DNA from: Candidatus Kaiserbacteria bacterium
Lineage (GTDB): Bacteria; Patescibacteriota; Minisyncoccia; Phycocordibacterales; UBA2100
DNA length: 64,000 nucleotides
Reading direction: 5' to 3'
Assembly (NCBI GenBank): GCA_016217925.1
Contig: JACRFK010000004.1
Location: 133,869 to 197,868 of the forward strand
This document shows positions 3,241-58,968 of the stretch, piece by piece. The position numbers and the translations under genes are program-made. The notes beneath the pieces are model-generated. The model ran no database searches. It worked only from the letters and a program-made list of their open reading frames with translations, and was not told the origin of the DNA. Within the stretch, counting starts at the first letter, position 1; the number at the start of each line of letters is the position of its first letter.

Positions 3241-3282
3241 GTCGCGTCCCGTCAATTGTTACGCGACCCGCTTTCTGTTAAT

Positions 3283-3306
3283 AGCCACTAGGGATTAGCC
3301 ACTAGT
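3283..3306 (+). promoter_or_regulatory. tandem TAGCCACTAG-GGAT-TAGCCACTAG motif (copy 1 of a recurrent motif)
   Basis: near-identical double motif also at 39214-39240 and 58884-58907, single copy at about 62337. Confidence 0.4.
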
Positions 3307-3383
3307 GAAATTTATTAAAATATCCGCTAATCGGAGTATAGCTTACAAAACGAAGGGTTTGTATGAAGAAAACCGATGGAGGT

Positions 3384-4315: not shown

Positions 4316-5569
4316 ATGAGACGGGTAGAGCGTATACTGGGAATTATGGAACCGCTCGCGTCAAAGATACGACCGAAAACGCTCGACGAGTTCGTCGGTC
4401 AGGAGCACTTGACGGGCGCGGGCAAGCCTCTGCGCGTGGCCATCGGGAAGAAAGAGCTTTTCTCATTTATTTTGTGGGGGCCGCCGGGGAGCGGCAAGAC
4501 GACACTCGCGCGCATCTACGCAAATGCGGTCGGCGCGGATTTCTATGAGCTCTCAGCGGTCGATTCGGGCAAAGAAGATATAAAAAAAGTGGTCCGCCTT
4601 CGCCAAGGCTTCGGCGGACAAGTCGGCTTGCCTCTAAAAGAAAAACCGCGCGTGCTGTTTGTCGACGAGATACATCGCTTCAACAAAGCTCAACAAGATT
4701 TCTTACTTCCCTTCGTCGAGCGCGGCGACATCACGCTCATCGGTGCGACCACGGAGAATCCCAGCTTCGAGATTATTTCGCCGCTGCTTTCCCGTTGCCG
4801 CGTCTTCGTATTGAACGAGCACTCAGAAGGAGAAATGAGGTTGATTATTGACCGTGCATATGCGGCGGTACAGAAAAACGCCCGCCCCGTCAGAGATAAG
4901 AACGCAAAGCGTTCTGGCGACGCAAGTCGCATCTCTAACGGGGCAAGCGAGTGGCTCGTGCGGATGGCAAACGGCGATGCCCGCCAAGCGATAACCACAC
5001 TCGAAACGACGCAGGCGCTCTATGGAAAGATTTCACTTGAGAATCTCAAAGAAGCCATTCAATCAAAACATCTTCGCTACGACAAAAAGGGCGAAGAGCA
5101 CTACAACACCATATCCGCGTTCATTAAGAGCATGCGCGCTTCACAGCCGGATGCTGCGCTCTACTACCTCGCGCGCATGGTGGATGCGGGCGAAGACCCC
5201 AAATTCATTGCGCGGCGCATGGTGATATTCGCAAGCGAAGATATCGGGCTCGCACAACCGACCGCGCTGGTCGTCGCCAATGCGGTGTTTGAGGCAGTCA
5301 ACAAAATAGGATATCCCGAGGCGACGATAAACCTTGCGCACGGCGTCGCATACCTCGCCCAGTGCAAAAAAGACCGCCGCTCATACGATGCGGTCTTTGA
5401 AGCGCTCGATGATGTAAAAAGATTCGGCAATCTCCCCATCCCGCTTCACATCCGCAACGCACCGACGAAGCTCATGAAAGAATTGAAGTATGGAAAAGGC
5501 TACAAGCAATACGACAAAGAATCCTATCTGCCGGAAAAACTAAAAAAGAAAAAGTATTTGAAAGGTTGA
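4316..5569 (+). CDS. rarA: replication-associated recombination protein A (AAA+ ATPase RarA/MgsA)
   Basis: Walker A GPPGSGKTTLA, FVDEIHRFNK, sensor motifs; a second in-frame ATG at 4346 is also a possible start. Confidence 0.85.
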   Translation: MRRVERILGIMEPLASKIRPKTLDEFVGQEHLTGAGKPLRVAIGKKELFSFILWGPPGSGKTTLARIYANAVGADFYELSAVDSGKEDIKKVVRLRQGFGGQVGLPLKEKPRVLFVDEIHRFNKAQQDFLLPFVERGDITLIGATTENPSFEIISPLLSRCRVFVLNEHSEGEMRLIIDRAYAAVQKNARPVRDKNAKRSGDASRISNGASEWLVRMANGDARQAITTLETTQALYGKISLENLKEAIQSKHLRYDKKGEEHYNTISAFIKSMRASQPDAALYYLARMVDAGEDPKFIARRMVIFASEDIGLAQPTALVVANAVFEAVNKIGYPEATINLAHGVAYLAQCKKDRRSYDAVFEALDDVKRFGNLPIPLHIRNAPTKLMKELKYGKGYKQYDKESYLPEKLKKKKYLKG

Positions 5570-7431: not shown

Positions 7432-7512
7432 ATGGCGGCAGATTTGAAGGGGCTTAAGACGCAATTTCTCCCCGCCGGAGGCGGGTCCTCCTCCGGAGGA
7501 GAATACTTATGA
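7432..7512 (+). CDS. upstream ORF (26 aa) mimicking the Xer N-terminus; its TGA stop overlaps the xer ATG (ATGA)
   Basis: [26 protein letters not shown]; residues [10 protein letters not shown] match Xer residues 3-12 (9/10) with 8 of 10 codons synonymously different. Confidence 0.4.
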
Positions 7513-9686
7513 AAGACTTAAAGGGTTTGAAAACCGAGTTTCTGGAGTATATAGAAATTGAAAAAGGGCGGAGCGTGAAGACGGTCGAGAATTATGACCG
7601 CTATCTCATGCGGTTCCTCAATTTTGCAAAGGTGAAGTCCCCTGCCCAGATAACCGAGCAGATGGTGCGTGAATTCCGTATCACACTCAATCGTTCCGCA
7701 GGGGTTACAGGCACGATGAAGAAGAATACACAAAATTATCACCTCATCGCGCTGCGCGCGTTCCTCAAGTTCCTCCGCAAGCGTGATATCGAATCGCTCA
7801 ATCCCGAGCGTATCGAACTTGCCAAGGTCGGTGGACGCGATTTGGATCTCATTACCGCCGATGAGCTCAACAGGATCATGCGTGCGCCCACGGGTGACGA
7901 GCTAGGGGGTCTGCGCGACCGCGCGATCCTCGAACTTTTGTTTTCTACCGGTTTGCGCGTCTCGGAACTCTGCAATTTGAATCAGGATATTGACCTCTCT
8001 CGCGATGAGTTCTCGGTGCGCGGCAAAGGAGAAAAGGTGCGCGTGGTATTTCTCTCGGCGTCCGCGAAAAAAGCGGTGGCCGAATATTTGAAAAAGCGCG
8101 GTGATATGAGCAAGGCGTTGTTCGTCAGTTACGGCAAAGGCGGCACGAGCAAGGGAAAAGATTTACCGCGCATCACTCCGCGCTCCGTCGAGCGATTGGT
8201 AAAACAGTACGCGATAAAAGCGGGCATCACGCGCAAAGTGACGCCGCATGTCATTCGTCACTGTCTCCACGCGGAAACGCGAATAATGGGAAACCCTTCG
8301 CTCACAACGGCGAAGGAGTTGTTCGCATCCGAAAAGCAAAAGAAGGTCCTTGGATTTGATTGGAAAAACAATCGTCTCATGCGGGCCTCGATTAAGAGAC
8401 GTGAAACACATTCCACACAACGCCTGATTTCTTTATGGGCGGACGGCCGGGAAATTTGCTGCACCCCGTACCACAGCTTTTTCACCCCGAGCGTTAACGG
8501 TATTGTGCCGATACAAGCACAAGACCTGAAAGTTGGGGATTATGTAGCGGGAGTTCGCAGTGTTCAATGGTCCCAGGGAAGTAGACCCGAAAGCGAATCC
8601 ACGGACTTTTGGAGATTGCTTGGATATATTCTTGGTGATGGAACGCTTAGTGAGGCACGGCGAGGTATTATCATAAATGATAAAGAACGTCGCCACATTG
8701 ACCTATACAACGAAATTGTTTTTCGTGTGACGGGCAGGTGCGGAACCGTCACTAAATTGTCAGGCGGCAATGGGTACGCGCTCAATATCTACAATGTTGG
8801 TTTTCTGAAAAAGGTACGAGCTCTTGGAATTACACAGCGTTCAAAAGAACGGCGTGTCCCCGCGGGCCTGTTTCAGGAGTCCGAGACCGCGATCCGAGCC
8901 TTTCTTGCAGGCTATTACGATGCCGAAGGAAATAACGGCAGGATTAAGATGTTCTCCGCAAGTAAGGAACTTCTGAAAGACATACAAATGTTGCTGCTCC
9001 GGTTGTCTATCGAGAGCATACTGCTCCGCCGAGAGCGGCGAGTGAAACTTCCCCAAGGTCGGGTCATTGACCACGTCATATACATACTGCATGTGACGTA
9101 TCCACCAAGCGAGAATCGCTTTGTGGAACTCATACCAACATTCAAACAACGCATACGACCGAAAAAAGAGTGGCAGCGACTCGATATTGCATTACCTACG
9201 CAACCACTGATTCGAGGACTCTACCCCCTTTTGCTTGCCAAGAGGGGTTTCATCCATTGGCTCGGTAACCGTTATGGCATACGGTACCTGAAACGTTATA
9301 CAAGAATATGTACAACACCGCTGCTGCTCTCTGTGTTTCTTAAGGCCTGCAAAGAAAAAAGAATTCGAAATCCATTTATCAAGCAACTCGAGGTTCTCAA
9401 CCGACTCGATTCGATTCGATGGCTCCGAGTGAAGAAGCTGGAGATGGTCGGCGGTGTATCGAAAGTTTACGATTTCACGATAGAACCAACGCACAATTTC
9501 ATCACAGATGGTTTTATCTCGCACAACTCATTCGCGACTGACCTACTCGAAAATGGTGCCGATCTGCGTAGCGTGCAAGCGCTCCTCGGCCACGCCAACA
9601 TCGCAACGACCCAAGTCTACACGCACGTGACCGACAAACACCTCCGCGAAGTCCATCAGGCATTTCACGGCAAACGCCGCAAATAA
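7509..9686 (+). CDS. XerC/XerD-family tyrosine recombinase containing an in-frame intein
   Basis: N-terminal SAM-like domain; ...TPHVIRH then a 422-aa insertion then [34 protein letters not shown] (R-H box and catalytic Tyr region). Confidence 0.85.
8262..9527 (+). mobile_element. intein with LAGLIDADG homing-endonuclease domain inside the xer gene
   Basis: starts with Cys right after HVIRH; ends with His-Asn before Ser+1 (SFAT); block B TPYH; LAGLIDADG motifs [11 protein letters not shown] and [11 protein letters not shown]; C-terminal blocks [12 protein letters not shown]...ISHN. Confidence 0.8.
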
Positions 9687-15852: not shown

Positions 15853-16647
15853 TCATTTCTTTTCGTGTCCGATTTCGCCGACAGTGGAACTATGATCGCG
15901 CATGAAATCGAACATCATGCGCAGCGTATGTGCTATCGTCGCGTCTTCGATAAGTACTGCGATCGGTCTCTCTTGTGCAAAAGAAAATATTGCTACCGTT
16001 TCTCCGTATATCGCGAATTCAGTGTCCATCGCGTAGCGCGCAGGAATGAACGAGGCTGTACGGCGGAATTTCTTGTCGTGTTTCGCCGCTTCGCGCGCCA
16101 CAGCCGAGTCAGGCGTTACATAGGCAACGTCTATACCGAGCCTTGTGCGTTTGCGCATGTAGTGTTCGATAAATCCCGGACGCAATTTCGTAAACACAGA
16201 TTCGAAGCCAGTGATCTCATATATCCGCTTCTGCGGATTGTTCTCCAGGGTGTCCTCAAAGGCCTTCTCTACGCCCTCAGGTCCTTCAAAGTAGCGTATC
16301 TTGGGAAGTGCGCGTCCCCTCTCCCGCAAGAGTCGCAGCTGTGGCAGCGTATCCGCCACCTCGTCTTTTGCGTCGAGGAGCTCTTTGCCGCGCCGCTCGA
16401 TATAAGAAGGAAGCAGGCCCGGATCGATTGACCGGAACATCGCTACTCCCTGGCGCCGTTCTTCAAAAGCGAGCCCCTTCCGCTTCAGCTCTTCAAGAAT
16501 CCCGTACGTCGTGGTGCGGTTCAGTCGCGCCTCCCGGGCGATCGCCGAAGCGTAGAGCGGGCCACTCGGAAGAAGCGCAAGCATCACACGCGATTCTTTC
16601 TCGGAGAGACCGATGCTCGTGAGGGCTTTTCTGATGGCAGGGGGCAC
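15853..16647 (-). CDS. TrmB-family transcriptional regulator (paralog 2)
   Basis: LTSIGLSEKESRVMLALL N-terminal HTH. Confidence 0.7.
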   Translation of the reverse strand: MPPAIRKALTSIGLSEKESRVMLALLPSGPLYASAIAREARLNRTTTYGILEELKRKGLAFEERRQGVAMFRSIDPGLLPSYIERRGKELLDAKDEVADTLPQLRLLRERGRALPKIRYFEGPEGVEKAFEDTLENNPQKRIYEITGFESVFTKLRPGFIEHYMRKRTRLGIDVAYVTPDSAVAREAAKHDKKFRRTASFIPARYAMDTEFAIYGETVAIFSFAQERPIAVLIEDATIAHTLRMMFDFMRDHSSTVGEIGHEKK

Positions 16648-22512: not shown

Positions 22513-23247
22513 CTAGACGGCCTTCCACATGAGTGAATGCATATTCCTGAATAAATCAGCAATATCTTTGTTCTCGATAACGACCGCAGAGAGATCCCGC
22601 AAGCTAATGAGGGCAACCTTTTCACTATAAATAAGCACGTCCACATTACTGTCGAACCAATCCGGGAGTTTTTTAGAGACCTTGTTTGAGGGCCCGTTCT
22701 TTTTACGTATCTCCTGTAGCGTTTTGTAGTGTTTGTCTGCGACGAACAGGTCGCGGCTCGCTATCGCGTATTGGGTTATAGATTTGTCAAAATCGTCGTA
22801 GTCTTGTTCGGTGAAATTCTCGAAGAATGTCGTAGGTGGGAAAATCGAATACACTACCCCGACTGTCTTGAAGAGATCCTCGTAGATGAGTTTCAGTTGC
22901 CGTTTCCCCTCGAAATACGTCACTCGCGGCCTATTTACGGCATACTCGTGAATAGTACCCATTTCAAGGATTGCGCCCTCTATATTGGCCATATTTCTAC
23001 GAAAGGTGGTGAAAACTCTCTGGGGGGCCACGGCGGAGTAATAGGTGCGTTTACCGGAGGGTTCACGTGTAACGTAGTCTTTTGCGAGCAGTTGGTCTAT
23101 GTACTCATAGCAAGATGCCCGTTTTATGCTGGTTTCTCGGGAGATCTGAGAAACGGTCATCCGTGGTCGTTTCAGTAGGGCGAGATATATATTTGCCTCT
23201 TTTTCATCCAGACCCATTGTCCGGAGTGCCTCCAGTGAGCGCTGCAT
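22513..23247 (-). CDS. TrmB-family transcriptional regulator (paralog 3)
   Basis: LRTMGLDEKEANIYLALL N-terminal HTH. Confidence 0.7.
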   Translation of the reverse strand: MQRSLEALRTMGLDEKEANIYLALLKRPRMTVSQISRETSIKRASCYEYIDQLLAKDYVTREPSGKRTYYSAVAPQRVFTTFRRNMANIEGAILEMGTIHEYAVNRPRVTYFEGKRQLKLIYEDLFKTVGVVYSIFPPTTFFENFTEQDYDDFDKSITQYAIASRDLFVADKHYKTLQEIRKKNGPSNKVSKKLPDWFDSNVDVLIYSEKVALISLRDLSAVVIENKDIADLFRNMHSLMWKAV

Positions 23248-39202: not shown

Positions 39203-39213
39203 AGGAATAGTAG

Positions 39214-39240
39214 TTAGCCACTAGGATTTAGCCATTAGTA
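39214..39240 (+). promoter_or_regulatory. tandem TAGCCACTAG motif (copy 2), 12 nt upstream of the nusA start codon
   Basis: TTAGCCACTAGGATTTAGCCATTAG; in gene orientation the nusA leader ...CTAGTGGCTAACTACTATTCCTATG matches the rpsG leader. Confidence 0.4.
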
Positions 39241-39304
39241 AGGTCTTTTAAAAAAAGCGTCCGCCAGAGGCGGAACGAATGAGAAGAGTTTAGCAGATGT
39301 TACG

Positions 39305-39673: not shown

Positions 39674-39701
39674 ACTTTCGTGGGCGCGCTATAATTGACG
39701 C

Positions 39702-41444
39702 ATGTACATCTCCGACACACATTTGAAATCATTTCTCGCCGATGCGGGGCTTGTCTCGGCAAAAGATTTTGATACCGCAGAAGTGGAGGCCAAGCAGACC
39801 GGGCAATCGGTCGGCGACATCCTAAAAGCGAAGAGCGCCATCGGGGAGGACGAACTGCGCCGCACCTATGCGTACATCCTCGGCATTCCATTTGTATCGC
39901 TTGTGGGGACCACCATCCAGTACGACGTGCTCTCTCTTCTTCCCGAACCCGTTGCGCGCCGCAACAACATCATCGCCTACAACCATCGCGGCGAAGAGTT
40001 GGAGGTCGCGATGCTCGATACTGATGACCTGGCGGCGATAGATTTCATCAAGAAGAAGACGCATCTCAAGGTCTTGCCGCGGCTCACCGATGTCGCATCT
40101 ATCAAAGCAGCACTCAAACAGTACCAACAGGGGCTCAAAGATAATCTCGGTGACGTCATCGGCCGTGAGACCGCCGCGCTCGAAAAGACCGCTCTCGGAG
40201 AGGGAAAAGAAACAGACCTCAAAGAGATCGCGGAAGGGACACCCACAGTACGCATCGTCGATACGCTTATAAGGCACGCCAATGCCCAGAACGCATCCGA
40301 CATCCACATCGAACCGCTCGAGCAGGCTCTCCTCATCCGCTACCGCATAGACGGTATTTTGCACGACGCGATGGAATTGCCGAAGCATGCCGCGGCCGCC
40401 ATTACCGCGCGCATTAAGGTGCTCGCCAACATGCGCCTCGACGAGCATCGTTTGCCGCAAGATGGACGGTTTGGCGCGGAGAGCGGAGGCGAGAAGATAT
40501 CGTTCCGTGTTTCTATTTTGCCGACCTACTACGGCGAGAAGATCGTTATGCGTCTTTTGCGTGACTCGATATCGGGATTCACTCTCGAGAGTATCGGATT
40601 CCATGGCGTAGGACTCGAGCGCATGCACGAAGCAATGCGCAAGACGACCGGCATGATCCTCTCCTGCGGCCCGACGGGTGCCGGAAAATCAACGACGCTC
40701 TATACATTGCTCGATATCGTGAATACTCCGGATGTGAATATCTCGACCATCGAAGACCCGATAGAGTATCAGATGCCGCGCATCAATCAGACCCAAGTGC
40801 GGCCCGATATCGGATTTACTTTTGCCAACGGCCTCCGCAGCCTCGTGCGTCAGGATCCGGATATCGTGATGGTGGGTGAAATACGCGACAAAGAGACAGC
40901 CTCGCTCGCGGTGAACGCCGCCCTCACGGGCCACCTAGTACTCTCGACACTGCACACGAATTCGGCGGCGGGTGCCGTCGCGCGATTACTCGACATGGGC
41001 ATCGAGCCGTTCCTTCTCGTTTCCACGCTGCGCGTCATCATCGGTCAGCGCTTGGTGCGCAAACTCGCTCCCGATAAAGAAAAGTACGAACTTTCACGCG
41101 ATGAGCAGGCACAGCTTGAGCATGTGGTAGACCAAGGCGTCGTCCTGAAAGCACTCAAAGACGAAAAAGCCCTTCCTCCCGAAGCGACGTGGAAGAATAT
41201 GTCTTTCTTCAAACCAAAAGAAAACGGAAAGACTCCCTCTGGCTATTCCGGACGCGTCGGTATTTACGAGGTCTTACCGGTAACTTCAACCATCAAAGAG
41301 CTCGTGATGAAAAATGATACCGGCGATGCGATAGAGCATCAGGCGCGGAGCGAAGGAATGCTCACGATGAGCGAGGACGGCATTTTTAAATCGGTGCAAG
41401 GCGTCACGACAATAGAAGAAGTACTCCGAGTCATTACGGAGTAG
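39702..41444 (+). CDS. pilB: type IV pilus assembly ATPase (GspE/PilB family)
   Basis: N-terminal GSPII_E domain; Walker A GPTGAGKST; Asp box and His box regions. Confidence 0.9.
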   Translation: MYISDTHLKSFLADAGLVSAKDFDTAEVEAKQTGQSVGDILKAKSAIGEDELRRTYAYILGIPFVSLVGTTIQYDVLSLLPEPVARRNNIIAYNHRGEELEVAMLDTDDLAAIDFIKKKTHLKVLPRLTDVASIKAALKQYQQGLKDNLGDVIGRETAALEKTALGEGKETDLKEIAEGTPTVRIVDTLIRHANAQNASDIHIEPLEQALLIRYRIDGILHDAMELPKHAAAAITARIKVLANMRLDEHRLPQDGRFGAESGGEKISFRVSILPTYYGEKIVMRLLRDSISGFTLESIGFHGVGLERMHEAMRKTTGMILSCGPTGAGKSTTLYTLLDIVNTPDVNISTIEDPIEYQMPRINQTQVRPDIGFTFANGLRSLVRQDPDIVMVGEIRDKETASLAVNAALTGHLVLSTLHTNSAAGAVARLLDMGIEPFLLVSTLRVIIGQRLVRKLAPDKEKYELSRDEQAQLEHVVDQGVVLKALKDEKALPPEATWKNMSFFKPKENGKTPSGYSGRVGIYEVLPVTSTIKELVMKNDTGDAIEHQARSEGMLTMSEDGIFKSVQGVTTIEEVLRVITE

Positions 41445-45136: not shown

Positions 45137-46642
45137 ATGGCGTATAGCGTATCGCGTATGGCGGGAGAAAGAAAAAGAGCAGATGCACGCTCTCTCCATA
45201 CTCCATACTCCATACTCCATACGCGCGCGCAGCGCGGCGTGACGACGATGCTCGTCATCGCGTTTATGGGGATTTTCCTCCTCATCATGGGCACTATCAC
45301 AAGCTACATATTCGAACAGGCGAAGTATGGGCGTGCTCTCTACAGTCGTGAACAGGCCCTGAGCATCGCCGAGGCGGGGCTCGAATATTATCGATGGTTC
45401 CTCGCGCACAATCCCAACAATCTGACCAATGGCACTGGTCTACCTGGTCCGTATACCTATACGGTGAGCGACCCCGAAGGTGGCACGCTGGGCTCGGCAT
45501 CAATATCGGTGGCGGGCAACTCGCAGTGCGGCGTCATCCAATCAATAGATATAACCTCGCAAGGCGCCTCGGACAGCAATACAACCTTCAAACGAACGCT
45601 TCTCGGGCGATACATGCGCAGATCTGTCGCTGCGTATTCGTATTTGTTGAATAGCAACGTATGGGCGGGAGCGGACCGCGCGATTACAGGCCAGTATTTT
45701 TCCAATGGCGGTATCCGTATGGACGGCAGTAACAACTCAGATGTCTCAAGTGCTCTTACCACCTGGAACTGCACGTCGAGTTACGGTTGTTCTCCTGCCG
45801 TGAATCCCGCAGCGGGGGTACTCGGGAGCGGGTCGGGGTCGGCGCTCTGGCACAATTCGGCCGCATCGATAGATTTTGCCGGTATCGCGACCAGCCTTAC
45901 GAACCTGAAGACCTACGCGCAAACAGGCGGCGGATTGTATTTCGCACCCTCTACCGGATCGGTCAATAGTCGCGGGTACCACATGATCTTCAAGTCGAAC
46001 GGGACGGTCGACGTGTACCGCGTGACGGGAACGACGGGCATAACAGGCTATCCGGATGGCAGCACAGCCACGACCGAATACAATATCATCGCAACGCAGA
46101 ATTTGCTCGGCAACTACACGGTACCTTCGGGCTGCCGCTTGATATTCGTCGAGGATCGCGTGTGGGTCGAAGGTGTCGTAAGCGGCAAGGTTACCATCGT
46201 CGCTGCGACACCGAGTGACACAGGCACGACTCCGTATGTGATCCTCCCCAACAACCTTACGTATGCGACCAATGATGGAACCGCTGGCTTTACCGCCATT
46301 TCGGAATCGGATGTGCTCATACCGCTCAACTCACCGAACGTGATGGAGATCCACGGTATCTTCGTCGCGCATAATGGCCGATACGGTCGCAATCATTACA
46401 CGACCTCGAGCCTGATTTCGCAATGGGACCCGTACGTCCTACGCTCGCAGCTGACAACCGTCGGCACAATTGTTTCCAGTGGCCGCACCGGTACGAAGTG
46501 GATTAATACTTCCACAGGAGTTACCACGTCGGGCTACCAAACACGCATTGATGCATACGACCAATTGCAGGCGACCGATCCGCCGCCGTTTACCCCTTCT
46601 GCCTCTACCGACTACAGTTATGTGCTGTGGAGAGAACAATGA
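45137..46642 (+). CDS. large type IV pilin-like protein with prepilin-type N-terminal domain
   Basis: leader ...HTRAQRG followed by VTTMLVIAFMGIFLLIMG; the leader is paralogous to pilin-1 (LHT.Y.I..TR.A.RGVT). Confidence 0.65.
   Translation: MAYSVSRMAGERKRADARSLHTPYSILHTRAQRGVTTMLVIAFMGIFLLIMGTITSYIFEQAKYGRALYSREQALSIAEAGLEYYRWFLAHNPNNLTNGTGLPGPYTYTVSDPEGGTLGSASISVAGNSQCGVIQSIDITSQGASDSNTTFKRTLLGRYMRRSVAAYSYLLNSNVWAGADRAITGQYFSNGGIRMDGSNNSDVSSALTTWNCTSSYGCSPAVNPAAGVLGSGSGSALWHNSAASIDFAGIATSLTNLKTYAQTGGGLYFAPSTGSVNSRGYHMIFKSNGTVDVYRVTGTTGITGYPDGSTATTEYNIIATQNLLGNYTVPSGCRLIFVEDRVWVEGVVSGKVTIVAATPSDTGTTPYVILPNNLTYATNDGTAGFTAISESDVLIPLNSPNVMEIHGIFVAHNGRYGRNHYTTSSLISQWDPYVLRSQLTTVGTIVSSGRTGTKWINTSTGVTTSGYQTRIDAYDQLQATDPPPFTPSASTDYSYVLWREQ
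45194..45221 (+). repeat. perfect heptanucleotide tandem repeat CTCCATA x4 inside the pilin-3 leader coding region
   Basis: 28 bp encoding LHTPYSILHT; not a multiple of three per unit. Confidence 0.75.
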
Positions 46643-46656
46643 TACAATCCGTCAAT

Positions 46657-46722
46657 GAATCCCGCCCTTTCTCGTTTCTCACGTTGCGCGCAACCGATTA
46701 TTCAGATAGAAAGAGCGGGATG
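46657..46722 (+). promoter_or_regulatory. hairpin element pairing the tpiA putative RBS (AAAGAG) and start codon
   Basis: GAATCCCGCCCTTTCTC ...(35 nt)... GAAAGAGCGGGATG: the arms are complementary (1 mismatch); the same element occurs at pgk. Confidence 0.5.
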
Positions 46723-47475
46723 AAATCGATTGTCGTTGCCAATTGGAAGATGAATCCGGGGACGATGCGCGAAGCAAAGAAGCTTTTTGATGCAACGAGA
46801 GAGGCGGCCGAGTCCGCGAAGCATGTATCGGTCATTGTGGCACCTCCCGCGATCTTTTTGCGCGAGTTGCGAGCGCGGTACAAAGGAAAGCGCCTTGGGT
46901 TTGCGATACAACAAGCAAGTGCGGAGGGAAGCGGTGCGTACACCGGAGATATTTCTTTGCCGCAAGCAAAGGACGCGGGTGCGCAGTACGTGATAGTGGG
47001 CCACTCCGAGCGGCGCGCCAAAGGCGAGTCGAATGAAGATGCCGGGAAGGTCGTCGCTGCCGCGCTCGAAAGCGACATGACCCCCATCCTGTGTGTCGGA
47101 GAAAAGGCGCGCTCACACGAAGGTGAACATTTCAATGTAGTAAAGGAACAGTTGCGTACGGGATTTTCCGGTGTGGAGCCGGGGAAGATCTCGAAAGTAC
47201 TCGTCGCATACGAGCCTGTGTGGGCAATCGGCGGTGAGAAAGCCATGAGCCCGCGCGATATGCACGAAATGGCGATATTTATTCGCAAGACGATAATCGA
47301 ACTTCACGGCGAAAAAGGAATGGGCGTCCGAATCATTTATGGCGGCGCAGCGACCGAGTCGAATGCGGCAGAGATGTTGCGCGATGGTGATGTCATCGGG
47401 CTTCTCGTGGGACACGTGAGTATCAACGAGGCGCGTTTTGCTGCACTCTTACAAGCATTAGAGAACGCACGATGA
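46720..47475 (+). CDS. tpiA: triosephosphate isomerase
   Basis: VVANWKMN, IVGHSERR, AYEPVWAIGG, GGA signature; start set to MKSIVV. Confidence 0.9.
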   Translation: MKSIVVANWKMNPGTMREAKKLFDATREAAESAKHVSVIVAPPAIFLRELRARYKGKRLGFAIQQASAEGSGAYTGDISLPQAKDAGAQYVIVGHSERRAKGESNEDAGKVVAAALESDMTPILCVGEKARSHEGEHFNVVKEQLRTGFSGVEPGKISKVLVAYEPVWAIGGEKAMSPRDMHEMAIFIRKTIIELHGEKGMGVRIIYGGAATESNAAEMLRDGDVIGLLVGHVSINEARFAALLQALENAR

Positions 47476-47536
47476 ATCCCGCCCTTTCGCACCCAAGATA
47501 CTCATTCAGGTTTATTAGCATAGAAAGAGCGGGATG
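47474..47536 (+). promoter_or_regulatory. second copy of the start-codon-pairing hairpin element, upstream of pgk
   Basis: GAATCCCGCCCTTTCGC ...(31 nt)... ATAGAAAGAGCGGGATGAAAT; the left arm overlaps the tpiA stop codon. Confidence 0.5.
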
Positions 47537-48658
47537 AAATGCATCGATGAGGTACCGGCAAGCGAATTAAAAGGGAAGCGCGTACTTCTGCGTCTCGATA
47601 TCAACTTGCCCATTGGAGATGATGGCGAGGCTTCCGACGTTTTTCGTATCGAACAAGCGTGGAAGACCATACGCTATCTTGCCGAACGCGGTGCCCGTGT
47701 GATCATCGTTTCCCACTTTGGACGCGAAGGCGATTCCATCGAGCCGGTTGCGCGCGCTATGAAAAAATTCGGTGCCGCCGTATTTATTCCCGACCTTGTT
47801 GGCCCCATTGCCCGTGGTGCCGCGAAGTCCATGAAAGACGGCGAAATTGCACTCCTTGAGAATGTCCGCCGTGATGTGCGCGAGACCGAAAACGACGAAG
47901 GGTTTGCAAAAGAACTTGCCGCGCTTGCAGATATATACGTTGACGACGCGTTTGCCGCCGCGCACCGTGCTCACGCATCTATCGTCGGGGTGCCGAAATT
48001 CCTTCCTTCATACGCGGGATTGTTGATGCGGAACGAGGTAAGAGAGATTGATGCCGCCCGCGCGCCCGGGCACCCGTCACTCGCCATTCTTGGTGGTGCG
48101 AAATTCGAGACGAAAGCACCGCTCATTAAATTATTGCTCGAAAAATATGACCACGTGTTTATCACGGGCGCGCTTGCCAACGATGTCTTCAAGGCACGCG
48201 GACTTCCGGTCGGCCGCTCGCTCATTTCAAAGGAGCAGCCTGGTGAGGATATACTTTCGAATCCGCATTTCCTTGCTCCCGTCGATGTGACGACAGAAGC
48301 ATCCGACGGGCAGGCACGTGTAAAGAAACCGCAGGACGTGCAGCCTGACGATAAGATAGTAGACATCGGCCCCAGTACCGTCGCCATGCTCGCTCCGCAC
48401 ATTGCGGGTGCAAAATTCATTCTCTGGGCCGGCCCGACGGGCATGTACGAGAACGGTTACATCCACTATACACAAGCAATTGCGGAGCTCATTTCAAAAA
48501 ACGAAGGGAAAAAAGTCATCGGGGGCGGTGACACCATCGCCGCCATCGAAGCGACCGGCGTATCGCAAAAAGACCTCGGCTTCCTTTCGACCGGCGGCGG
48601 CGCCATGCTCGAATACTTGCTAAAGGGAACATTACCGGGAGTCGAGGCTCTTGGCTAG
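47534..48658 (+). CDS. pgk: phosphoglycerate kinase
   Basis: RVLLRLDINLP, VIIVSHFGR, GGGA..EYL C-terminal motifs. Confidence 0.9.
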   Translation: MKCIDEVPASELKGKRVLLRLDINLPIGDDGEASDVFRIEQAWKTIRYLAERGARVIIVSHFGREGDSIEPVARAMKKFGAAVFIPDLVGPIARGAAKSMKDGEIALLENVRRDVRETENDEGFAKELAALADIYVDDAFAAAHRAHASIVGVPKFLPSYAGLLMRNEVREIDAARAPGHPSLAILGGAKFETKAPLIKLLLEKYDHVFITGALANDVFKARGLPVGRSLISKEQPGEDILSNPHFLAPVDVTTEASDGQARVKKPQDVQPDDKIVDIGPSTVAMLAPHIAGAKFILWAGPTGMYENGYIHYTQAIAELISKNEGKKVIGGGDTIAAIEATGVSQKDLGFLSTGGGAMLEYLLKGTLPGVEALG

Positions 48659-49071: not shown

Positions 49072-49157
49072 GTATCCAGTATACCCTGTGAGGTATGGAC
49101 TTTCACATGTCGCACAGGCCCGAACATCTTATCGCATGGGGTATACAATAGGACATC

Positions 49158-50861
49158 ATGCATGACCTTGTTGTAAGACTTCTTGCAAAACGGGGGATTA
49201 CCGAAGCCGCTGCGGTCGCGGCGTTTTTGAATCCGGATTATGAGCTGCACACGCACTCGCCTTTTTTGTTACGGGGAATGGATGTTGCCGTCGCCCGCGT
49301 GTTTGACGCGATGGAGAAAAACGAACGGGTTGCGGTGTATGCAGACTTTGATTGCGACGGGATTCCCGGTGCGGCCCTCCTTTCAGACCTTTTCAACAAA
49401 ATAGAGTACAAGAACTTCGAAGTGTATCTGCCACATCGCGACAGGGAAGGATACGGGTTTCATACGGAAGCAATTGAAACGCTTGCGGGGCAGGGAGTAA
49501 AACTCATCATCACCGTCGACGTCGGCACGACCGCATTTGACGCGGTCGCGTTCGCCAAGGAAAAAGGAGTTGATGTCATTGTGACCGACCACCACGAGCC
49601 CATTAGAGAGCCTTCGGCCTCTAACGGGCCAGGAATACCCGGGGCACTACCGGGTGCAGTTGCGATGCTTAATCCAAAACTGGCACCGTACCCCTTTCCG
49701 CATTTGTGTGGCGCGGCGGTCGCCTTCAAGCTCGCACAAGCAATTCTTGCGGAGGGCCACAAGAGGGAATTGAAACAATTCGAAGCAATTCCCCAGGGCT
49801 GGGAAAAATGGCTCCTCGATATGGTCGCGATCGCGACTGTTGCAGATATGGTCCCGCTCGTCGGAGAAAATCGTGCACTCACACACTGGGGCTTGCAAGT
49901 CTTGCGCAAATCACCGCGGCCGGGGATACAAGCGCTTTGTGCAAAATTGCGATTACGTCAGTCAGAACTTTCCGAAAGTGATATCGGCTTCTCTATCGCT
50001 CCGCGCGTGAACGCCGCATCCCGGATGGATGAGCCCGACTTGGCACTACAGCTTCTCATCACGCGCGACGTTGCCGAAGCCGAGCATCTGGCGGCGCAAC
50101 TTGAAAAATTGAATACACGCAGGAAAAGCGTGGTCGCAAGTTTGGTAAAACAGGCGCGCACACATGTGAAAGAGCGGTACAAAGATGATGAACGTGTCGT
50201 CGTCGTGGGCAATCCCGAATGGAAACCGGCGCTCCTCGGCCTTGCCGCCAACTCCGTCATGTCGGACAGAGGCGGCGTCGTGTGCATGTGGGGACGCGAT
50301 GTGAACGGAAAATTGAAAGGCTCGTGCCGCTCGGACGGCGACGTTTCGGTTCTCGAACTTTTTGAGAATGCCGGAGATGTGTTCGAGGAATACGGAGGAC
50401 ATGCTGCATCCTGTGGCTTCACCGTTTCACACGAGCGCGTGCATCAATTGGGGGAGGCGCTTGCGCGTGCCGCAGAAAAATTGCCGCCTCGCGTAGATGG
50501 AGTCGCACTCGAACACGACGTGTCCGTCACCCTTTCCGATATTTCGTCGGCGTTCTTTAAAGAGGTTTCGAAGCTTGCCCCATTCGGCATCGGCAATCCG
50601 AAACCCATCTTTCTTTTGAACAACACGACCATCGTCGGGGTGAAACGTTTCGGCAAGGAAAATAATCACGTAGAGGTTATGCTCGAATGCCGCGCGAGCG
50701 GGAACTCCGCTCGCGCGTTCGAATTTTTCAAATCACCCGGCGATTTTTCTCTTGAGCCAGCTCCGGGACAATTTGCGAGCCTCCTTGCGACCATCGAGCG
50801 CGACTCCTACCGCGGTGGGCTTGCGCTCAGGATTGTTGATATCGTTCCCGTGTCGGTATAA
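49158..50861 (+). CDS. recJ: single-stranded-DNA-specific exonuclease RecJ
   Basis: DHH motifs VYADFDCDG and VIVTDHH; DHHA1 domain; 567 aa. Confidence 0.85.
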   Translation: MHDLVVRLLAKRGITEAAAVAAFLNPDYELHTHSPFLLRGMDVAVARVFDAMEKNERVAVYADFDCDGIPGAALLSDLFNKIEYKNFEVYLPHRDREGYGFHTEAIETLAGQGVKLIITVDVGTTAFDAVAFAKEKGVDVIVTDHHEPIREPSASNGPGIPGALPGAVAMLNPKLAPYPFPHLCGAAVAFKLAQAILAEGHKRELKQFEAIPQGWEKWLLDMVAIATVADMVPLVGENRALTHWGLQVLRKSPRPGIQALCAKLRLRQSELSESDIGFSIAPRVNAASRMDEPDLALQLLITRDVAEAEHLAAQLEKLNTRRKSVVASLVKQARTHVKERYKDDERVVVVGNPEWKPALLGLAANSVMSDRGGVVCMWGRDVNGKLKGSCRSDGDVSVLELFENAGDVFEEYGGHAASCGFTVSHERVHQLGEALARAAEKLPPRVDGVALEHDVSVTLSDISSAFFKEVSKLAPFGIGNPKPIFLLNNTTIVGVKRFGKENNHVEVMLECRASGNSARAFEFFKSPGDFSLEPAPGQFASLLATIERDSYRGGLALRIVDIVPVSV

Positions 50862-50870
50862 TGCGGACTC

Positions 50871-51281
50871 ATGGCTAAACAAGTCGTTATCTACACTGAT
50901 GGAGGTGCCCGAAATAATCCGGGGCCCGCGGGTGCCGGCGTCGTCATCATTGATGAAAAGAAGAAAGTCACACTGAAAAAATATCTCGGAAGTCAGACCA
51001 ATAATTGGGCAGAGTACGAGGCCGTAGTACTCGCGCTTTCAGAGGCGAAGAGGCTCGGGCTCGGCGGGCGCCCTCTAGAAGTGCGTATGGATAGCAAGCT
51101 CGTCGTTGAGCAAATTCTCGGCAATTGGAAAATAAAAGAACCGACGCTCAAGCCACAGGCTGCGAAAGTTCGCGCGCTGCTCGCGGCAGATTTTCCAAAA
51201 TATCATTTCGTACACATTCCGCGCGAGGAAAACGCCGAGGCGGATGCGCTCGTCAATGAGGTGCTAGATTCATCCCGTTAG
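50871..51281 (+). CDS. rnhA: ribonuclease HI
   Basis: VVIYTDGGARNNPGPAG, TNNWAEYEAV, C-terminal EENAEADALVN. Confidence 0.85.
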   Translation: MAKQVVIYTDGGARNNPGPAGAGVVIIDEKKKVTLKKYLGSQTNNWAEYEAVVLALSEAKRLGLGGRPLEVRMDSKLVVEQILGNWKIKEPTLKPQAAKVRALLAADFPKYHFVHIPREENAEADALVNEVLDSSR

Positions 51282-51282
51282 A

Positions 51283-51345
51283 AATAGCGCGCCCCAAAGG
51301 CCCGTCGGGCGTGCAAGCACGGGCGCGATTTCTAACGGGACGGGG
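51283..51345 (+). terminator. long GC-rich hairpin after rnhA (terminator-like)
   Basis: GAAATAGCGCGCCC ... GGGCGCGATTTC outer stem enclosing inner hairpins. Confidence 0.4.
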
Positions 51346-54055: not shown

Positions 54056-54646
54056 CTATTTCTGCGCTTCATCGAACCGTTTTTCTATCACGCTCCAATT
54101 GAGGTTTTTGAAGAACGCGTCTATATATTTGCCCTTGCCCGTCGCACCGTAATCGAGGAGAAATGCGTGTTCCCATACGTCGAGCGCAAGGAGTATGGGA
54201 AGCGTCACGAAATGTCCCTGGTGCTGCTCGCCGGAAAATCCCGAGAGGAGCTCGTCTCCTTTTTTGTCGTAGTACAAAATCGCCCAGCCGGGCCCGCGCA
54301 TGTTGCCAATCTTCGTCATGACCTCGACGACGTCTTTCGGTTTGTATGTCTTTTGGAGCGCCTTCCCGAGCGCGCCACCCGCCGCAAGCTCTTTGGCGCC
54401 ACCCTCAAACTGCTCGAAGTAGTGCTCATGCAGCCGCATGCCGTCGAATTCAAATGAACGGCGGCGGATGAGCTCGGCGACGGGATGCATATTTTTCTCC
54501 CAATCTTCCATAGCGAGTTCCGCAATCTGTTTGGATATCGCATTAAAATTCTTTACATAGCCTTCGTAGAGCCCGATGTGCTGCTTCACGGATTCATCCG
54601 AAATGCCTTCGAGCGAGGGGAGAGTAAACTTTTTTGCTTCGTACAT
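54056..54646 (-). CDS. Fe/Mn superoxide dismutase
   Basis: metal ligands in HH..YV and DVWEHAF motifs; 196 aa. Confidence 0.85.
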   Translation of the reverse strand: MYEAKKFTLPSLEGISDESVKQHIGLYEGYVKNFNAISKQIAELAMEDWEKNMHPVAELIRRRSFEFDGMRLHEHYFEQFEGGAKELAAGGALGKALQKTYKPKDVVEVMTKIGNMRGPGWAILYYDKKGDELLSGFSGEQHQGHFVTLPILLALDVWEHAFLLDYGATGKGKYIDAFFKNLNWSVIEKRFDEAQK

Positions 54647-54719
54647 ATACGGCTAGTATATCATCGCGGTCCGTGAAGGCACGCTGAAAAAGAAGAAACC
54701 CGGGGCGGCCGGCCGGGTT

Positions 54720-58287: not shown

Positions 58288-58469
58288 GACAAAGAGCCGC
58301 CGCCCAGTTTTCTTTCTCGAGCCATCCCTAGTACACCCCGTGAGATAAGCTAACGCGTGTTATGACGTACGTTTGAAAATACAGAATCTTTTTGAGTGCC
58401 CACAAAAACTGGACTTTTTTATCTCATGGGGTACACTCCTCGGACTCCCTTCGGGGATTTTTAATTGTC

Positions 58470-58886
58470 ATGTCGACCATAAATCAACTTACGCGTAAGG
58501 GCCGGGCAAAAAAGACCTGGCGCACGAAGACCATCGCGCTTTCGCGCGGTTTCAACACGCTCGAAAATCGCCCTTCTTTCTACTCCGCACCCTTCAAACG
58601 CGGTGTTTGCACCCGTGTGACGACTAAGACTCCCCGCAAACCGAACTCCGCTATCCGCAAAATCGCGCGCGTACGCCTCACCAACGGTATGGAAGTCACG
58701 GCCTACATTCCGGGCGAGGGCCACACTCTGCAAGAACACTCGGTCGTTCTTATCCGCGGTGGACGCGTGAAAGACATCGGTGTGCGCTACACGATAGTGC
58801 GCGGCAAATTAGATGCGACAGGCGTCGAGAAGCGTCGTCGCGGCCGCTCTAACTATGGTGCCAAGAAGCCCAAGGCTAGTAAATAG
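58470..58886 (+). CDS. rpsL: 30S ribosomal protein S12, with an ~10-aa insertion near the N-terminus
   Basis: [12 protein letters not shown] ... [58 protein letters not shown]. Confidence 0.9.
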
Positions 58887-58907
58887 CCACTAGGGACTAG
58901 CCACTAG
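58884..58907 (+). promoter_or_regulatory. tandem TAGCCACTAG-GGAC-TAGCCACTAG motif (copy 3) between rpsL and rpsG
   Basis: begins at the rpsL TAG stop codon; inverted-complementary CTATTGGCTA lies at 58946-58955 just upstream of rpsG. Confidence 0.4.
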
Positions 58908-58968
58908 AAAATACATTCAAATTCAGAATTCACTAATCACTAACCACTATTGGCTAACTACTATTCCC

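Follow-up and report, generated by a model that had tools for sequence, protein, structure and literature searches.

Two neighbouring glycolytic genes of Candidatus Kaiserbacteria, tpiA (triose-phosphate isomerase) and pgk (phosphoglycerate kinase), begin with the same sequence, and each start is preceded by a complementary arm, so that the same hairpin would lie across both. Is this repeat a regulatory device shared by two genes of one pathway, as the initial annotation proposed (coordinated post-transcriptional control, for example by an RNA thermometer or a protein-binding site), or did it reach both genes by another route? The analysis was carried out on the whole stretch of DNA around the pair, 64,000 nucleotides, here called the window, and on related loci from metagenomes; sample SRR12113407 also contains this contig.

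The left arm GAATCCCGCCCTTTC has exact matches in the window at 46657-46671 and 47474-47488, and the right arm ATAGAAAGAGCGGGATGAAAT at 46706-46726 and 47520-47540; all coordinates given earlier proved correct except the first, which was 2 nt off (46706, not 46704). The exact arms are spaced by 34 nt in the tpiA copy and by 31 nt in the pgk copy. The pairing of the repeat at the two starts is real: both arms are exact at both genes, and the 21-mer right arm had 0 exact or near copies in 100 shuffles of the window (expected 0.00). The stem is formed by AUCCCGCCCUUUC with GAAAGAGCGGGAU (46659-46671 with 46709-46721, and 47476-47488 with 47523-47535), i.e., 13 bp made up of 12 Watson-Crick pairs and one C·A mismatch, with a computed duplex energy of -17.3 kcal/mol and a loop of 34-37 nt. 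As annotated, the loops differ, and those of the two window copies are in fact unrelated (41-47% identity within the 34-nt class). These are the only two type-A copies, as we call them, in the 64 kb; a DNA uptake sequence was ruled out by there being only two arm pairs over this length.

RNA folding places the stem, described earlier as one of about 13 bp, in the minimum free energy (MFE) fold of both leaders, in 83-86-nt as well as in 146-nt contexts, whereas the z-scores of whole-segment folding are unremarkable (-1.5 and -2.5 in the short contexts, +0.8 and -0.4 in the long ones). In the predicted fold the A and the U of both start codons (AUG of tpiA at 46720, of pgk at 47534) lie inside the stem, and the structural part of the proposal is upheld for both genes, with the purine-rich stretch and two start-codon bases covered by the predicted hairpin. 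The sequence AAAGAG is likewise buried, but its identity as the ribosome-binding site is uncertain, because much of the genome appears to be leaderless. AGAAAGAG is a candidate Shine-Dalgarno sequence and CCCGCCCUUUC a candidate anti-Shine-Dalgarno mimic. In silico, the right arm is paired with a probability of 0.88-0.91 from 5 to 65 °C, and a stem predicted to be closed throughout this range argues against the RNA thermometer. What the initial annotation missed is that each copy opens with an ATG of its own, at 46655 and 47472.

The comparison with the closest relative (L002/L163) bears directly on the origin of the two hairpins. TpiA is 90% identical there and synteny extends over 19 kb, with neither copy present, and the flanks align at more than 90% identity around clean gaps of 65 nt and 62 nt. 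The features of the locus, with the evidence for each, are the following (window coordinates).

46640..46648, + strand: extended -10-like box TGATACAAT, putative ancestral leaderless tpiA promoter, 6 nt 5′ of the ATG at 46655 (read from the sequence)
46655..46659, + strand: left ATGAA copy, ancestral tpiA start and now the start of sORF1 (alignment with the L002 empty site; flanks covary across the family)
46655..46723, + strand: sORF1, 22 codons, MNPALSRFSRCAQPIIQIERAG; its stop TGA (46721-46723) overlaps the tpiA ATG (46720-46722)
46660..46719, + strand: type-A palindromic element, copy 1, consisting of T, CCCGCCCTTTC, a 37-nt loop and GAAAGAGCGGG (65-nt clean insertion relative to L002)
46720..46724, + strand: right ATGAA copy, present tpiA start (L002 alignment; flank covariation)
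46720..47475, + strand: tpiA, triose-phosphate isomerase, 251 aa (PF00121)
47472..47476, + strand: left ATGAA copy, ancestral overlap of tpiA stop and pgk start; its ATG starts sORF2 and the TGA at 47473-47475 is the tpiA stop
47472..47537, + strand: sORF2, 21 codons, MNPALSHPRYSFRFISIERAG; its stop TGA overlaps the pgk ATG (47534-47536)
47477..47533, + strand: type-A palindromic element, copy 2, consisting of T, CCCGCCCTTTC, a 34-nt loop and GAAAGAGCGGG (62-nt clean insertion relative to L002)
47534..48658, + strand: pgk, phosphoglycerate kinase, 374 aa (PF00162); its first five bases are the right ATGAA copy

L002 keeps the starts ATGAAATCG and ATGAAATG but neither arm, and this is the arrangement, a start retained in an ortholog in which the upstream arm is absent, that the initial annotation had itself set against its proposal. 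Both window insertions sit exactly at ATGAA, which is duplicated on either side of the element and single in the empty site of L002. The alignment shows each copy as a clean insertion into an ATGAA that was formerly the start of the gene. In L002 the tpiA stop overlaps the pgk start (ATGA) at a junction that reads ...CGATGAAATG... without an insert, and tpiA has a leaderless-type promoter, TGATACAAT-N6-ATG. The same box and spacing precede tpiA in most relatives, and in the window the box shares bases with the stop codon (TGA) of the pilin-like gene that lies before tpiA. Since TAnnnT-N5-8-ATG is found at 22 window genes, leaderless-type promoters appear to be widely used here. Most of the 41 related tpiA loci are without the element, and in L008, L021, L025, L026, L033 and L054 the tpiA start or the tpiA-pgk junction is held by different subfamilies.

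Type-A copies also lie far from glycolysis. The family occurs in Candidatus Kaiserbacteria and its relatives, and a metagenome scan yielded 22 or more distinct copies that have the same arms, set between a left flank ATGAxT and a right flank ATGAx; the set was gathered by an exact-arm pattern, so that arm conservation within it is by construction, and it includes some orthologous copies (e.g., L050, L114), which inflate the statistics. At least 15 different genes are preceded by such copies, among them pgk, rpiB-like, murA-like, map, fmt, gmd-like, a sugar nucleotidyltransferase and ftsK-like genes. Because many of these genes are non-glycolytic, the presence of the hairpin at both tpiA and pgk is explained by a dispersed repeat that inserted twice, and not by a regulatory design common to the two genes. 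In 22/22 copies the two flanks covary (ATGAA/ATGAA in 19, ATGAT/ATGAT in two, ATGAG/ATGAG in one), and the flank repeat matches the native start; at the sixth base the left flank always has T and the right flank varies, and the length of the target-site duplication, 4 or 5 nt, is ambiguous. Deviant flanks occur in a few copies (TACAA in L058/L134, TGTA in L155, and L064). The 17 asymmetric copies all point in the direction of the gene, none against it, and the C·A mismatch is retained in 17/22. A TAnnnT box lies 6-7 nt 5′ of the left ATG in 8/22 copies, while a long upstream ORF with a TGA overlapping the left ATG is found in 10/22. The loop of copy 1 is 76% identical to that of L048 and 68% to those of L050/L114, all with other genes downstream, against a median loop identity of 46%; by this measure, one loop subfamily is present at non-orthologous sites. 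L149 contains a nested insertion flanked by ATGAAT, and L094 has tetraloop short versions of the same arms.

How could a gene survive the insertion of a stable hairpin into its start codon? The left ATG opens an intact frame of 21-23 codons in 19/22 copies, and the TGA of this frame overlaps the ATG of the gene; the resulting ATGA stop/start overlap is present at 46720-46723, at 47534-47537 and in 19/22 family members. The offset from ATG to ATG is 2 mod 3, without an in-frame stop, in 19/22 copies. Element lengths cluster at 56, 59 and 62 nt, and all three off-length copies (57, 58 and 61 nt) have early stops. Shuffled loops are open in only 47% of cases, which gives 0.47^19 ~ 6e-7, a significance inflated by the orthologous copies in the set. 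Between the orthologous copies L050 and L114 the differences are mostly non-synonymous and the sORF peptide is not conserved, a pattern consistent with a model in which it is the act of translation that counts and not its product. Where the right arm varies between AGA and AGG, both codons encode Arg, and ERAG is therefore invariant. We infer from these frames that the sORF is translated. Translational coupling has two recognised models, RNA unfolding and ribosome reinitiation, and weakens with growing distance between the ORFs (PMC12548453).

A sister family, type B, is represented once in the window.

51273..51340, no strand assigned: type-B palindrome TCCCGTTAGAAAT...ATTTCTAACGGGA, between the RNase H gene and comEC; it supplies the RNase H stop codon

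No clean empty site is definable for this copy, as the region is too diverged from L163. In L008, L016, L021, L025 and L033, type-B-related copies occupy the start of tpiA or its junction with pgk, and the ends of the type-B frame differ from those of type A (MNPVRN...YF*). Hairpins of both types were located by explicit hairpin scans; the arm covariation among subfamilies is real, but as evidence it is circular, since inverted repetition was the feature by which the copies were found. A type-B-like hairpin at 4886-4942 was considered as an in-frame insertion in rarA and dropped, since the alignment to E. coli RarA has no clear insertion.

Taken together, both hairpins are likely to be copies of a short (57-60 nt), non-autonomous, MITE/REP-like mobile palindrome that tolerates or targets start codons, with expression kept via the relay sORF, and the tiny relay reading frame probably makes the type-A element harmless to the host gene. 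The transcript would carry the hairpin, which would lock the AUG of the gene. A ribosome would reach the left AUG by 5′-terminal leaderless initiation, or by reinitiation after tpiA, and would translate the 21-23 codons of the sORF, unwinding the stem as it goes. It would then terminate on the UGA within AUGA and either reinitiate or expose the site to a new ribosome, so that the host gene would still be expressed, with coupling as before. A stable stem 5 nt after a 5′-terminal AUG might, as a counterpoint, hinder leaderless initiation on the sORF. The element may persist at start codons because few other sites are nearly neutral in a very compact genome, and it may also prefer (A)TGAN targets. 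A bolder formulation, rather unlikely when taken as a whole, is that of an undescribed “translationally transparent” mobile palindrome for the start codons of leaderless or overlapping genes in ultra-compact CPR genomes, which duplicates the start codon, carries a conserved relay sORF and may be co-opted as a ribosome-dependent gate, possibly pausing at ...ERAG-UGA, on dozens of housekeeping genes.

Pfam scans of the window ORFs found no transposase or RAYT, only an intein-containing Xer-like recombinase, and no autonomous partner IS with the same terminal repeats was found in the 64-kb window. In Rfam 15 only tRNAs of the window reach the gathering score, and the matches at 46600-47600 are at chance level (all E >= 0.03, far below gathering scores). 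No copy of type A or type B was found in IMG/VR, and a phage origin was rejected. A literature search turned up no specific account of elements of this kind, either from Patescibacteria or from start codons.

Mobility could also have brought in an expression signal, as in the REP2 repeats of Neisseria. The gene would then be driven by a weak outward promoter inside the element (T(T)GC..N17..TAGAAA-N7-ATG, with a leaderless mRNA beginning at the right ATG) or by AGAAAGAG in the role of a Shine-Dalgarno sequence; the palindrome would serve transposition alone, as DNA, and the sORF would be a by-product. The loop is indeed conserved in its 3′ part, with TTAT-N5-TA directly before GAAAGAG, a motif that the relay model leaves unexplained; one subfamily has TTGC about 17 nt 5′ of a TAGAAA that lies 7 nt before the ATG, and TATAAT-N7-ATG occurs in the long element at the L008 junction. 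TAGAAA, however, is without the final T that is invariant in the -10 boxes of this organism, a consensus scan of 46400-47700 detected no sigma-70 promoter inside the element, and the portable signal does not predict the kept frame, its open reading and the TGA/ATG overlap of 19/22 copies; it is an unlikely account. We regard as improbable a domesticated leader, in which hairpin and sORF would now serve many housekeeping genes as a co-opted, ribosome-dependent gate. Such a gate might sense translation capacity or act by termination pausing at ...ERAG-UGA, an end that resembles the RAG(P) arrest motif of SecM. The conservation of the sORF, the stop/start overlap and the orientation, a predicted stable stem that locks the AUG, the C·A mismatch and the invariant ERAG all speak for it; but the palindromic arms themselves dictate the ERAG and NPALS ends, the sister families encode other ends, copies are gained and lost between close relatives, and the target genes have no evident function in common.

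The cis-regulatory hairpin dedicated to tpiA and pgk, whether thermometer or protein-binding site, would account for identical arm pairs exactly at two consecutive glycolytic starts and for the hairpin in the MFE fold. It is contradicted by the comparative data and largely refuted: the element is missing in the closest ortholog and in most of the 41 related tpiA loci, precedes many non-glycolytic genes, has a stem that is predicted to remain paired (P about 0.9) at all temperatures between 5 and 65 °C and has no Rfam match, and this reading is now very improbable. Local duplication or gene conversion between the two starts, or an assembly artefact, would dispense with mobility and draws on the short distance between the copies (817 nt) and on the ATGAAAT common to both. 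Yet their loops are unrelated, more than 20 independent contigs carry the element in other gene contexts, and an independent Logan assembly (L001) also has both copies, so that this explanation is scarcely credible. Programmed translational bypass, as in T4 gene 60 or the mitochondrial byp elements, with ATGAA as matching take-off and landing sites, was rejected: the gap is open and in frame, and bypass would need neither.

A mobile palindrome with a relay frame would illustrate how selfish DNA can persist where there is almost no intergenic space, the element sitting in a start codon while the relay frame keeps the gene translated. For annotators of candidate-phyla genomes, identical “leaders” at neighbouring genes may be repeats, and not regulons, and gene callers will misplace starts at such elements (the Logan call for tpiA is 278 aa, versus 251 aa). 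Type A would also be a natural, compact and portable translational-coupling module, a candidate for synthetic operons, and would give indirect access to the way uncultured Patescibacteria carry out leaderless initiation and reinitiation.

Among known systems, RNA thermometers (ROSE, fourU) likewise mask the translation start region with a hairpin, but the type-A stem is too stable, with no melting in silico between 5 and 65 °C, orthologous loci do not conserve it and it has no link to heat-shock or virulence genes. Type A agrees with MITEs in being short (<~400 bp) and without a transposase ORF, its only ORF being the 21-23-codon frame, and in its 13-nt terminal inverted repeats with one mismatch, its target-site duplication, its multiple dispersed copies and its presence/absence polymorphism. 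The bacterial MITEs, such as the Correia elements of Neisseria and ERIC/RU of enterobacteria, are similarly short and transposase-less, with hairpin-forming terminal inverted repeats and short flanking direct repeats. We know of no parent IS for type A. Its arms are only about 13 nt long and its loops nearly free, whereas MITE copies are usually similar over their whole length, and it differs further in sitting exactly in start codons, in the (A)TGAN duplication, in the kept frame of the relay sORF and in the strict orientation with the gene. MITEs are dispersed and polymorphic, are co-transcribed with their neighbours and can alter their expression (PMC3184786).

The REP/REPIN sequences mobilised by RAYT/TnpA-REP are also small, dispersed intergenic repeats with conserved, G+C-rich imperfect palindromic stems and variable loops. 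They lie mostly 3′ of genes, whereas type A is found at the 5′ ends of genes, within the start codon and between duplicated flanks. REPs carry a GTAG or CGTC head (PMC3733652); the type-A arms begin with (A)TCCCG, without either. Closer in position are REP2 of Neisseria and the upstream repeats of Borrelia, which lie directly 5′ of genes and contain an ATG start and stem-loops (PMC3184786), all features shared by type A. As described, REP2 supplies both a promoter and a ribosome-binding site (PMC3184786), in contrast to type A, for which no convincing promoter was found and whose start codon comes from the duplicated host ATGAA. In-frame insertions of repeats into protein genes are cited as well (PMC3184786).

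Selfish palindromes can be tolerated in expressed sequence in more than one way: the Rickettsia palindromic elements (RPE) because the frame is kept, and the “byp” GC-clusters of yeast mitochondria because the ribosome bypasses them. Type A would be neither fused to a protein nor bypassed; instead, a separate small ORF is proposed to hand the ribosome on at ATGA. Here it comes nearest to the coupled pairs phage f1 VII-IX, MS2 coat-lysis and rpmI-rplT, in which a hairpin-locked start is opened by the upstream ribosome at a stop/start overlap (PMC12548453). Type A shares the stop/start overlap and, by prediction, the hairpin-locked downstream start, but its 21-23-codon upstream ORF appears to have arisen through a mobile insertion, and many genes are preceded by a copy of the device.

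The initial annotation had noted that tpiA and pgk begin with the same sequence, each preceded by a complementary arm, and both elements proved to be exact repeats, although the first of its coordinates was 2 nt off. The features concerned are the following:

46657-46671 and 47474-47488, upstream arm of 15 nt, repeated exactly
46706-46726 and 47520-47540, start region of 21 nt, repeated exactly
46720 and 47534, starts of tpiA and pgk
46655 and 47472, ATG opening each copy, six bases 5′ of CCCG
51273-51340, sister-family palindrome TCCCGTTAGAAAT...ATTTCTAACGGGA, between the RNase H gene and comEC

The exact arms and start regions have no further copies in the window, and about zero would be expected by chance. 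The stem predicted to bury the start region joins AUCCCGCCCUUUC with GAAAGAGCGGGAU through 12 Watson-Crick pairs and one C·A mismatch (computed duplex energy -17.3 kcal/mol), and takes in the A and U of the regenerated AUG with the purine-rich stretch before it. Folding recovered this stem in the minimum-free-energy structure, in short contexts as well as in one of 146 nt; the total folding energy of the hairpin segments was ordinary compared with shuffles (z -2.5 to +0.8). The loops differ, as had been claimed: they measure 37 nt at tpiA and 34 nt at pgk and are unrelated except for TTATT...ATA adjoining the right arm. The shared start consists of 14 nt of element followed by the native ATGAAAT, which was already present in both genes.

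The sites were compared with 41 tpiA loci from the genomes of related species. Going by the names of the nearest TpiA proteins and loci, the organism belongs to Candidatus Kaiserbacteria (Patescibacteria). In most of these, TG-n-TACAAT and a further 6-7 nt precede the ATG of tpiA, an arrangement recognisable as a leaderless-type promoter, and the pgk start is overlapped by the tpiA stop or lies a few bases off. The closest relative (L002/L163), whose TpiA is 90% identical and whose synteny extends over 19 kb, keeps both the promoter and the stop/start overlap and has neither hairpin; absence of the upstream arm from orthologous loci with the identical start region had been named beforehand as grounds for abandoning the proposed control element. 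In pairwise alignment with this relative the flanks match closely and are separated by clean gaps, 65 nt long at the tpiA start and 62 nt long at the junction. The empty sites read ...TACAATCCCCCC-ATGAAATCG and ...CACG-ATGAAATG and the filled ones ATGAA-T-CCCG...CGGG-ATGAA-A, and because they differ in this way the window copies are read as insertions into ATGAA with duplication of the pentamer; a 4-nt TGAA duplication around T...A describes them equally well.

A metagenome scan with both arms matched at least 120 contigs, many of them unrelated perfect palindromes of other organisms. At least 22 distinct copies, the two window copies included, combine the common arms with a left flank ATGAxT and a right flank ATGAx, and most of the 22 listed keep the C·A mismatch. 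Judged by their N-termini, the genes 3′ of the listed copies encode Pgk, a ribose-5-phosphate isomerase B-like protein, a MurA-like protein, methionine aminopeptidase, Fmt, a GDP-mannose dehydratase-like protein, sugar-phosphate nucleotidyltransferases and an FtsK-like protein. The coordinated control of tpiA and pgk suggested earlier, and with it any glycolysis-specific control, is contradicted by these comparative data, in which copies precede many unrelated genes. Ten of the 22 listed copies lie at gene junctions, with the left ATG overlapped by the TGA of a long upstream ORF, and eight have a TAnnnT box 6-7 nt 5′ of the left ATG. The left and right pentamers covary in all 22 (ATGAA/ATGAA in 19, ATGAT/ATGAT in two, both before map, and ATGAG/ATGAG in one, before fmt), and the sixth base, always T on the left, varies on the right, so that the flanks look like a target-site duplication and not a fixed part of the element.

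The loop of the tpiA copy is 76% identical to that of a copy before another gene (L048) and 68% to those before an ftsK-like gene (L050/L114), against a median of 46% among the listed copies, which places the same subfamily at non-orthologous sites. Nested hairpins occur in L149 (7094-7200), where a CCCGCCCTTC...GAAGAGCGGG element encloses CCAGCCCTTC...GAAGGGCTGG, itself bordered by ATGAAT at either end. Short tetraloop forms of the arms seen at tpiA and pgk occur in L094. A sister family with the arms CCCGTTAGAAAT/ATTTCTAACGGG and the same flanks, ATGAAT...ATGAA, is found at the start of tpiA or at its junction with pgk in six loci (L008, L016, L021, L025, L026, L033); where sequence had been collected independently of the arm pattern, ATGAATCCCG opens a hairpin of this kind in 7 of its 9 occurrences. 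In the window copy at 51273-51340 the left arm provides the RNase H gene with its final codons and TAG stop, and the syntenic region of L163 has a 5-nt spacer without the element. Taken together, dispersal, flank covariation, shared subfamilies, nesting and sister-family occupancy make it very probable that the hairpins belong to a family of small mobile palindromes and do not represent a leader conserved at two glycolytic genes. An Rfam search returned no known RNA family, and a phage origin was rejected, no copy being found in the viral contigs of IMG/VR.

From its own ATG each copy holds an open frame, of 22 codons at tpiA (MNPALSRFSRCAQPIIQIERAG) and 21 at pgk (MNPALSHPRYSFRFISIERAG), whose final TGA overlaps the ATG of the gene (ATGA); the ATG of the second frame also overlaps the TGA of tpiA. 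Among the listed copies, 19 of 22 have an ATG-to-ATG distance of 2 mod 3 and a frame open to the TGA of ATGA, at element lengths of 56, 59 or 62 nt, and those of 57, 58 and 61 nt each meet an early stop. Shuffled loops keep the frame open in only 47%, giving for 19 of 19 a P of ~6e-7 if copies are independent and ~1e-4 if only a dozen are; frame 2 is interrupted by stops in 10 of the 22. The small frame thus appears to be under constraint. Since open frames are kept while the orthologous copies of L050 and L114 differ mostly non-synonymously, what counts seems to be the act of translation rather than the peptide. Of the listed copies, 17 are made asymmetric by the mismatch, and all of them point with the gene and none opposite. 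Gene callers are misled by the insertion at the tpiA start: the public call on a matching Logan contig (L001 6526-7362, window 46639-47475) starts upstream of the element and gives 278 aa instead of 251 aa.

An RNA thermometer, also suggested by the initial annotation, was excluded in silico, since across 5-65 °C the right arm remains ~90% paired. A domesticated regulatory gate is a less likely reading. The invariant ...ERAG-UGA end resembles RAG(P), the arrest motif of SecM, but it follows from the palindrome itself, and different ends are encoded by the sister families. Expression of the downstream gene from a promoter or ribosome-binding site inside the element, as such signals are brought by Neisseria REP2 (PMC3184786), is improbable: TAGAAA lacks the final T common to all native -10 boxes here, a promoter scan found none in the element, and neither signal predicts conservation of a frame.

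We lean towards the relay frame as the way in which the insertions are tolerated, and the combined statement of mobile insertion with such tolerance is likely. At tpiA the former leaderless promoter would drive transcription of the hairpin, placing the 5′ end at 46655, and the hairpin at pgk would be transcribed within the tpiA-pgk message. A ribosome would start at the left AUG, read 21-23 codons, unwinding the stem, and terminate on the UGA, where it would reinitiate at the overlapping AUG or leave the start accessible to a second ribosome. Two models of translational coupling are recognised, RNA unfolding and ribosome reinitiation (PMC12548453). The state before insertion, a leaderless start at tpiA and stop/start coupling at pgk, would thereby be restored. 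Insertions elsewhere in such gene-dense genomes would usually be lethal, and this by itself might account for the occurrence of copies at starts; a true (A)TGAN target preference is also likely because the same two sites are taken by several subfamilies. One weak point of the relay model is that a stable stem 5 nt from a 5′-terminal AUG should hamper leaderless initiation. The conserved loop sequence TTAT-N5-TA, complementary to AUGA when G·U pairs are allowed, is left unexplained by it and could serve as an A/U-rich enhancer, as a weak promoter directed outwards, or as a recognition or guide sequence for a transposase.

Further palindromes were seen. The tpiA-pgk junction of L008 (3756-3873) contains a 118-nt element with TATAAT-N7-ATG and a frame of 18 codons that stops at the right arm's TAA, 4 nt 5′ of the pgk ATG. 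This suggests that long members bring with them both a leaderless promoter and a relay frame; a decayed ortholog is present in L026. Between a pilin-like gene and the tpiA promoter, L163 (8255-8356) has an inverted repeat whose 22-nt arms match perfectly and enclose a loop of 58 nt, and the motif gcctgcgaag recurs upstream of tpiA in several relatives (loci L002, L016, L027 and L038); these are probably yet another palindromic repeat family. Upstream of rpsL, an inverted repeat with 19-nt arms (58330-58437, CCCGTGAGATAA...TTATCTCATGGG, GTACAC on both sides) may likewise belong to the CCCG-hairpin superfamily or may form a leader structure. A 57-nt hairpin in the rarA/mgsA coding region (4886-4942, CCCGTCAGAGA...TCTCTAACGGG) shows no clear insertion when aligned to E. 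coli RarA and may be due to chance.

In at least 22 window genes a TAnnnT box lies 5-8 nt 5′ of the ATG (e.g., 49140-49160, 50852-50873, 39684-39704, 54646-54665), so that first genes of this genome appear, as a rule, to have leaderless transcripts; few Shine-Dalgarno-like sequences are present in the window. A tandem TAGCCACTAG-N4-5-TAGCCACTAG in three intergenic regions (3275-3319, 39208-39252, 58877-58921), adjoining an NYN-domain gene, nusA and rpsL and also found upstream of tpiA in L009, could be an operator or another repeat family. The window also contains a Xer-like tyrosine recombinase gene split by an intein with a LAGLIDADG homing-endonuclease domain (7509-9686), and three TrmB-like winged-helix regulators (231-998, 15853-16647, 22513-23247) in 64 kb of a very small genome.

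Literature searches found no description of such palindromic elements in Patescibacteria, of a family living in start codons with start-codon duplication, or of a conserved relay frame ending in a stop/start overlap. The palindrome lacks the GTAG/CGTC tag of REP sequences, and in size, inverted repeats, duplication, dispersal and polymorphism it agrees with MITEs; Pfam scans of the window's ORFs turned up no transposase. Bacteria are well known to contain MITEs and small palindromic repeats, among them some with ORFs, some fused in frame to a gene and some that supply expression signals and an ATG (PMC3184786, PMC2759123, PMC3733652).
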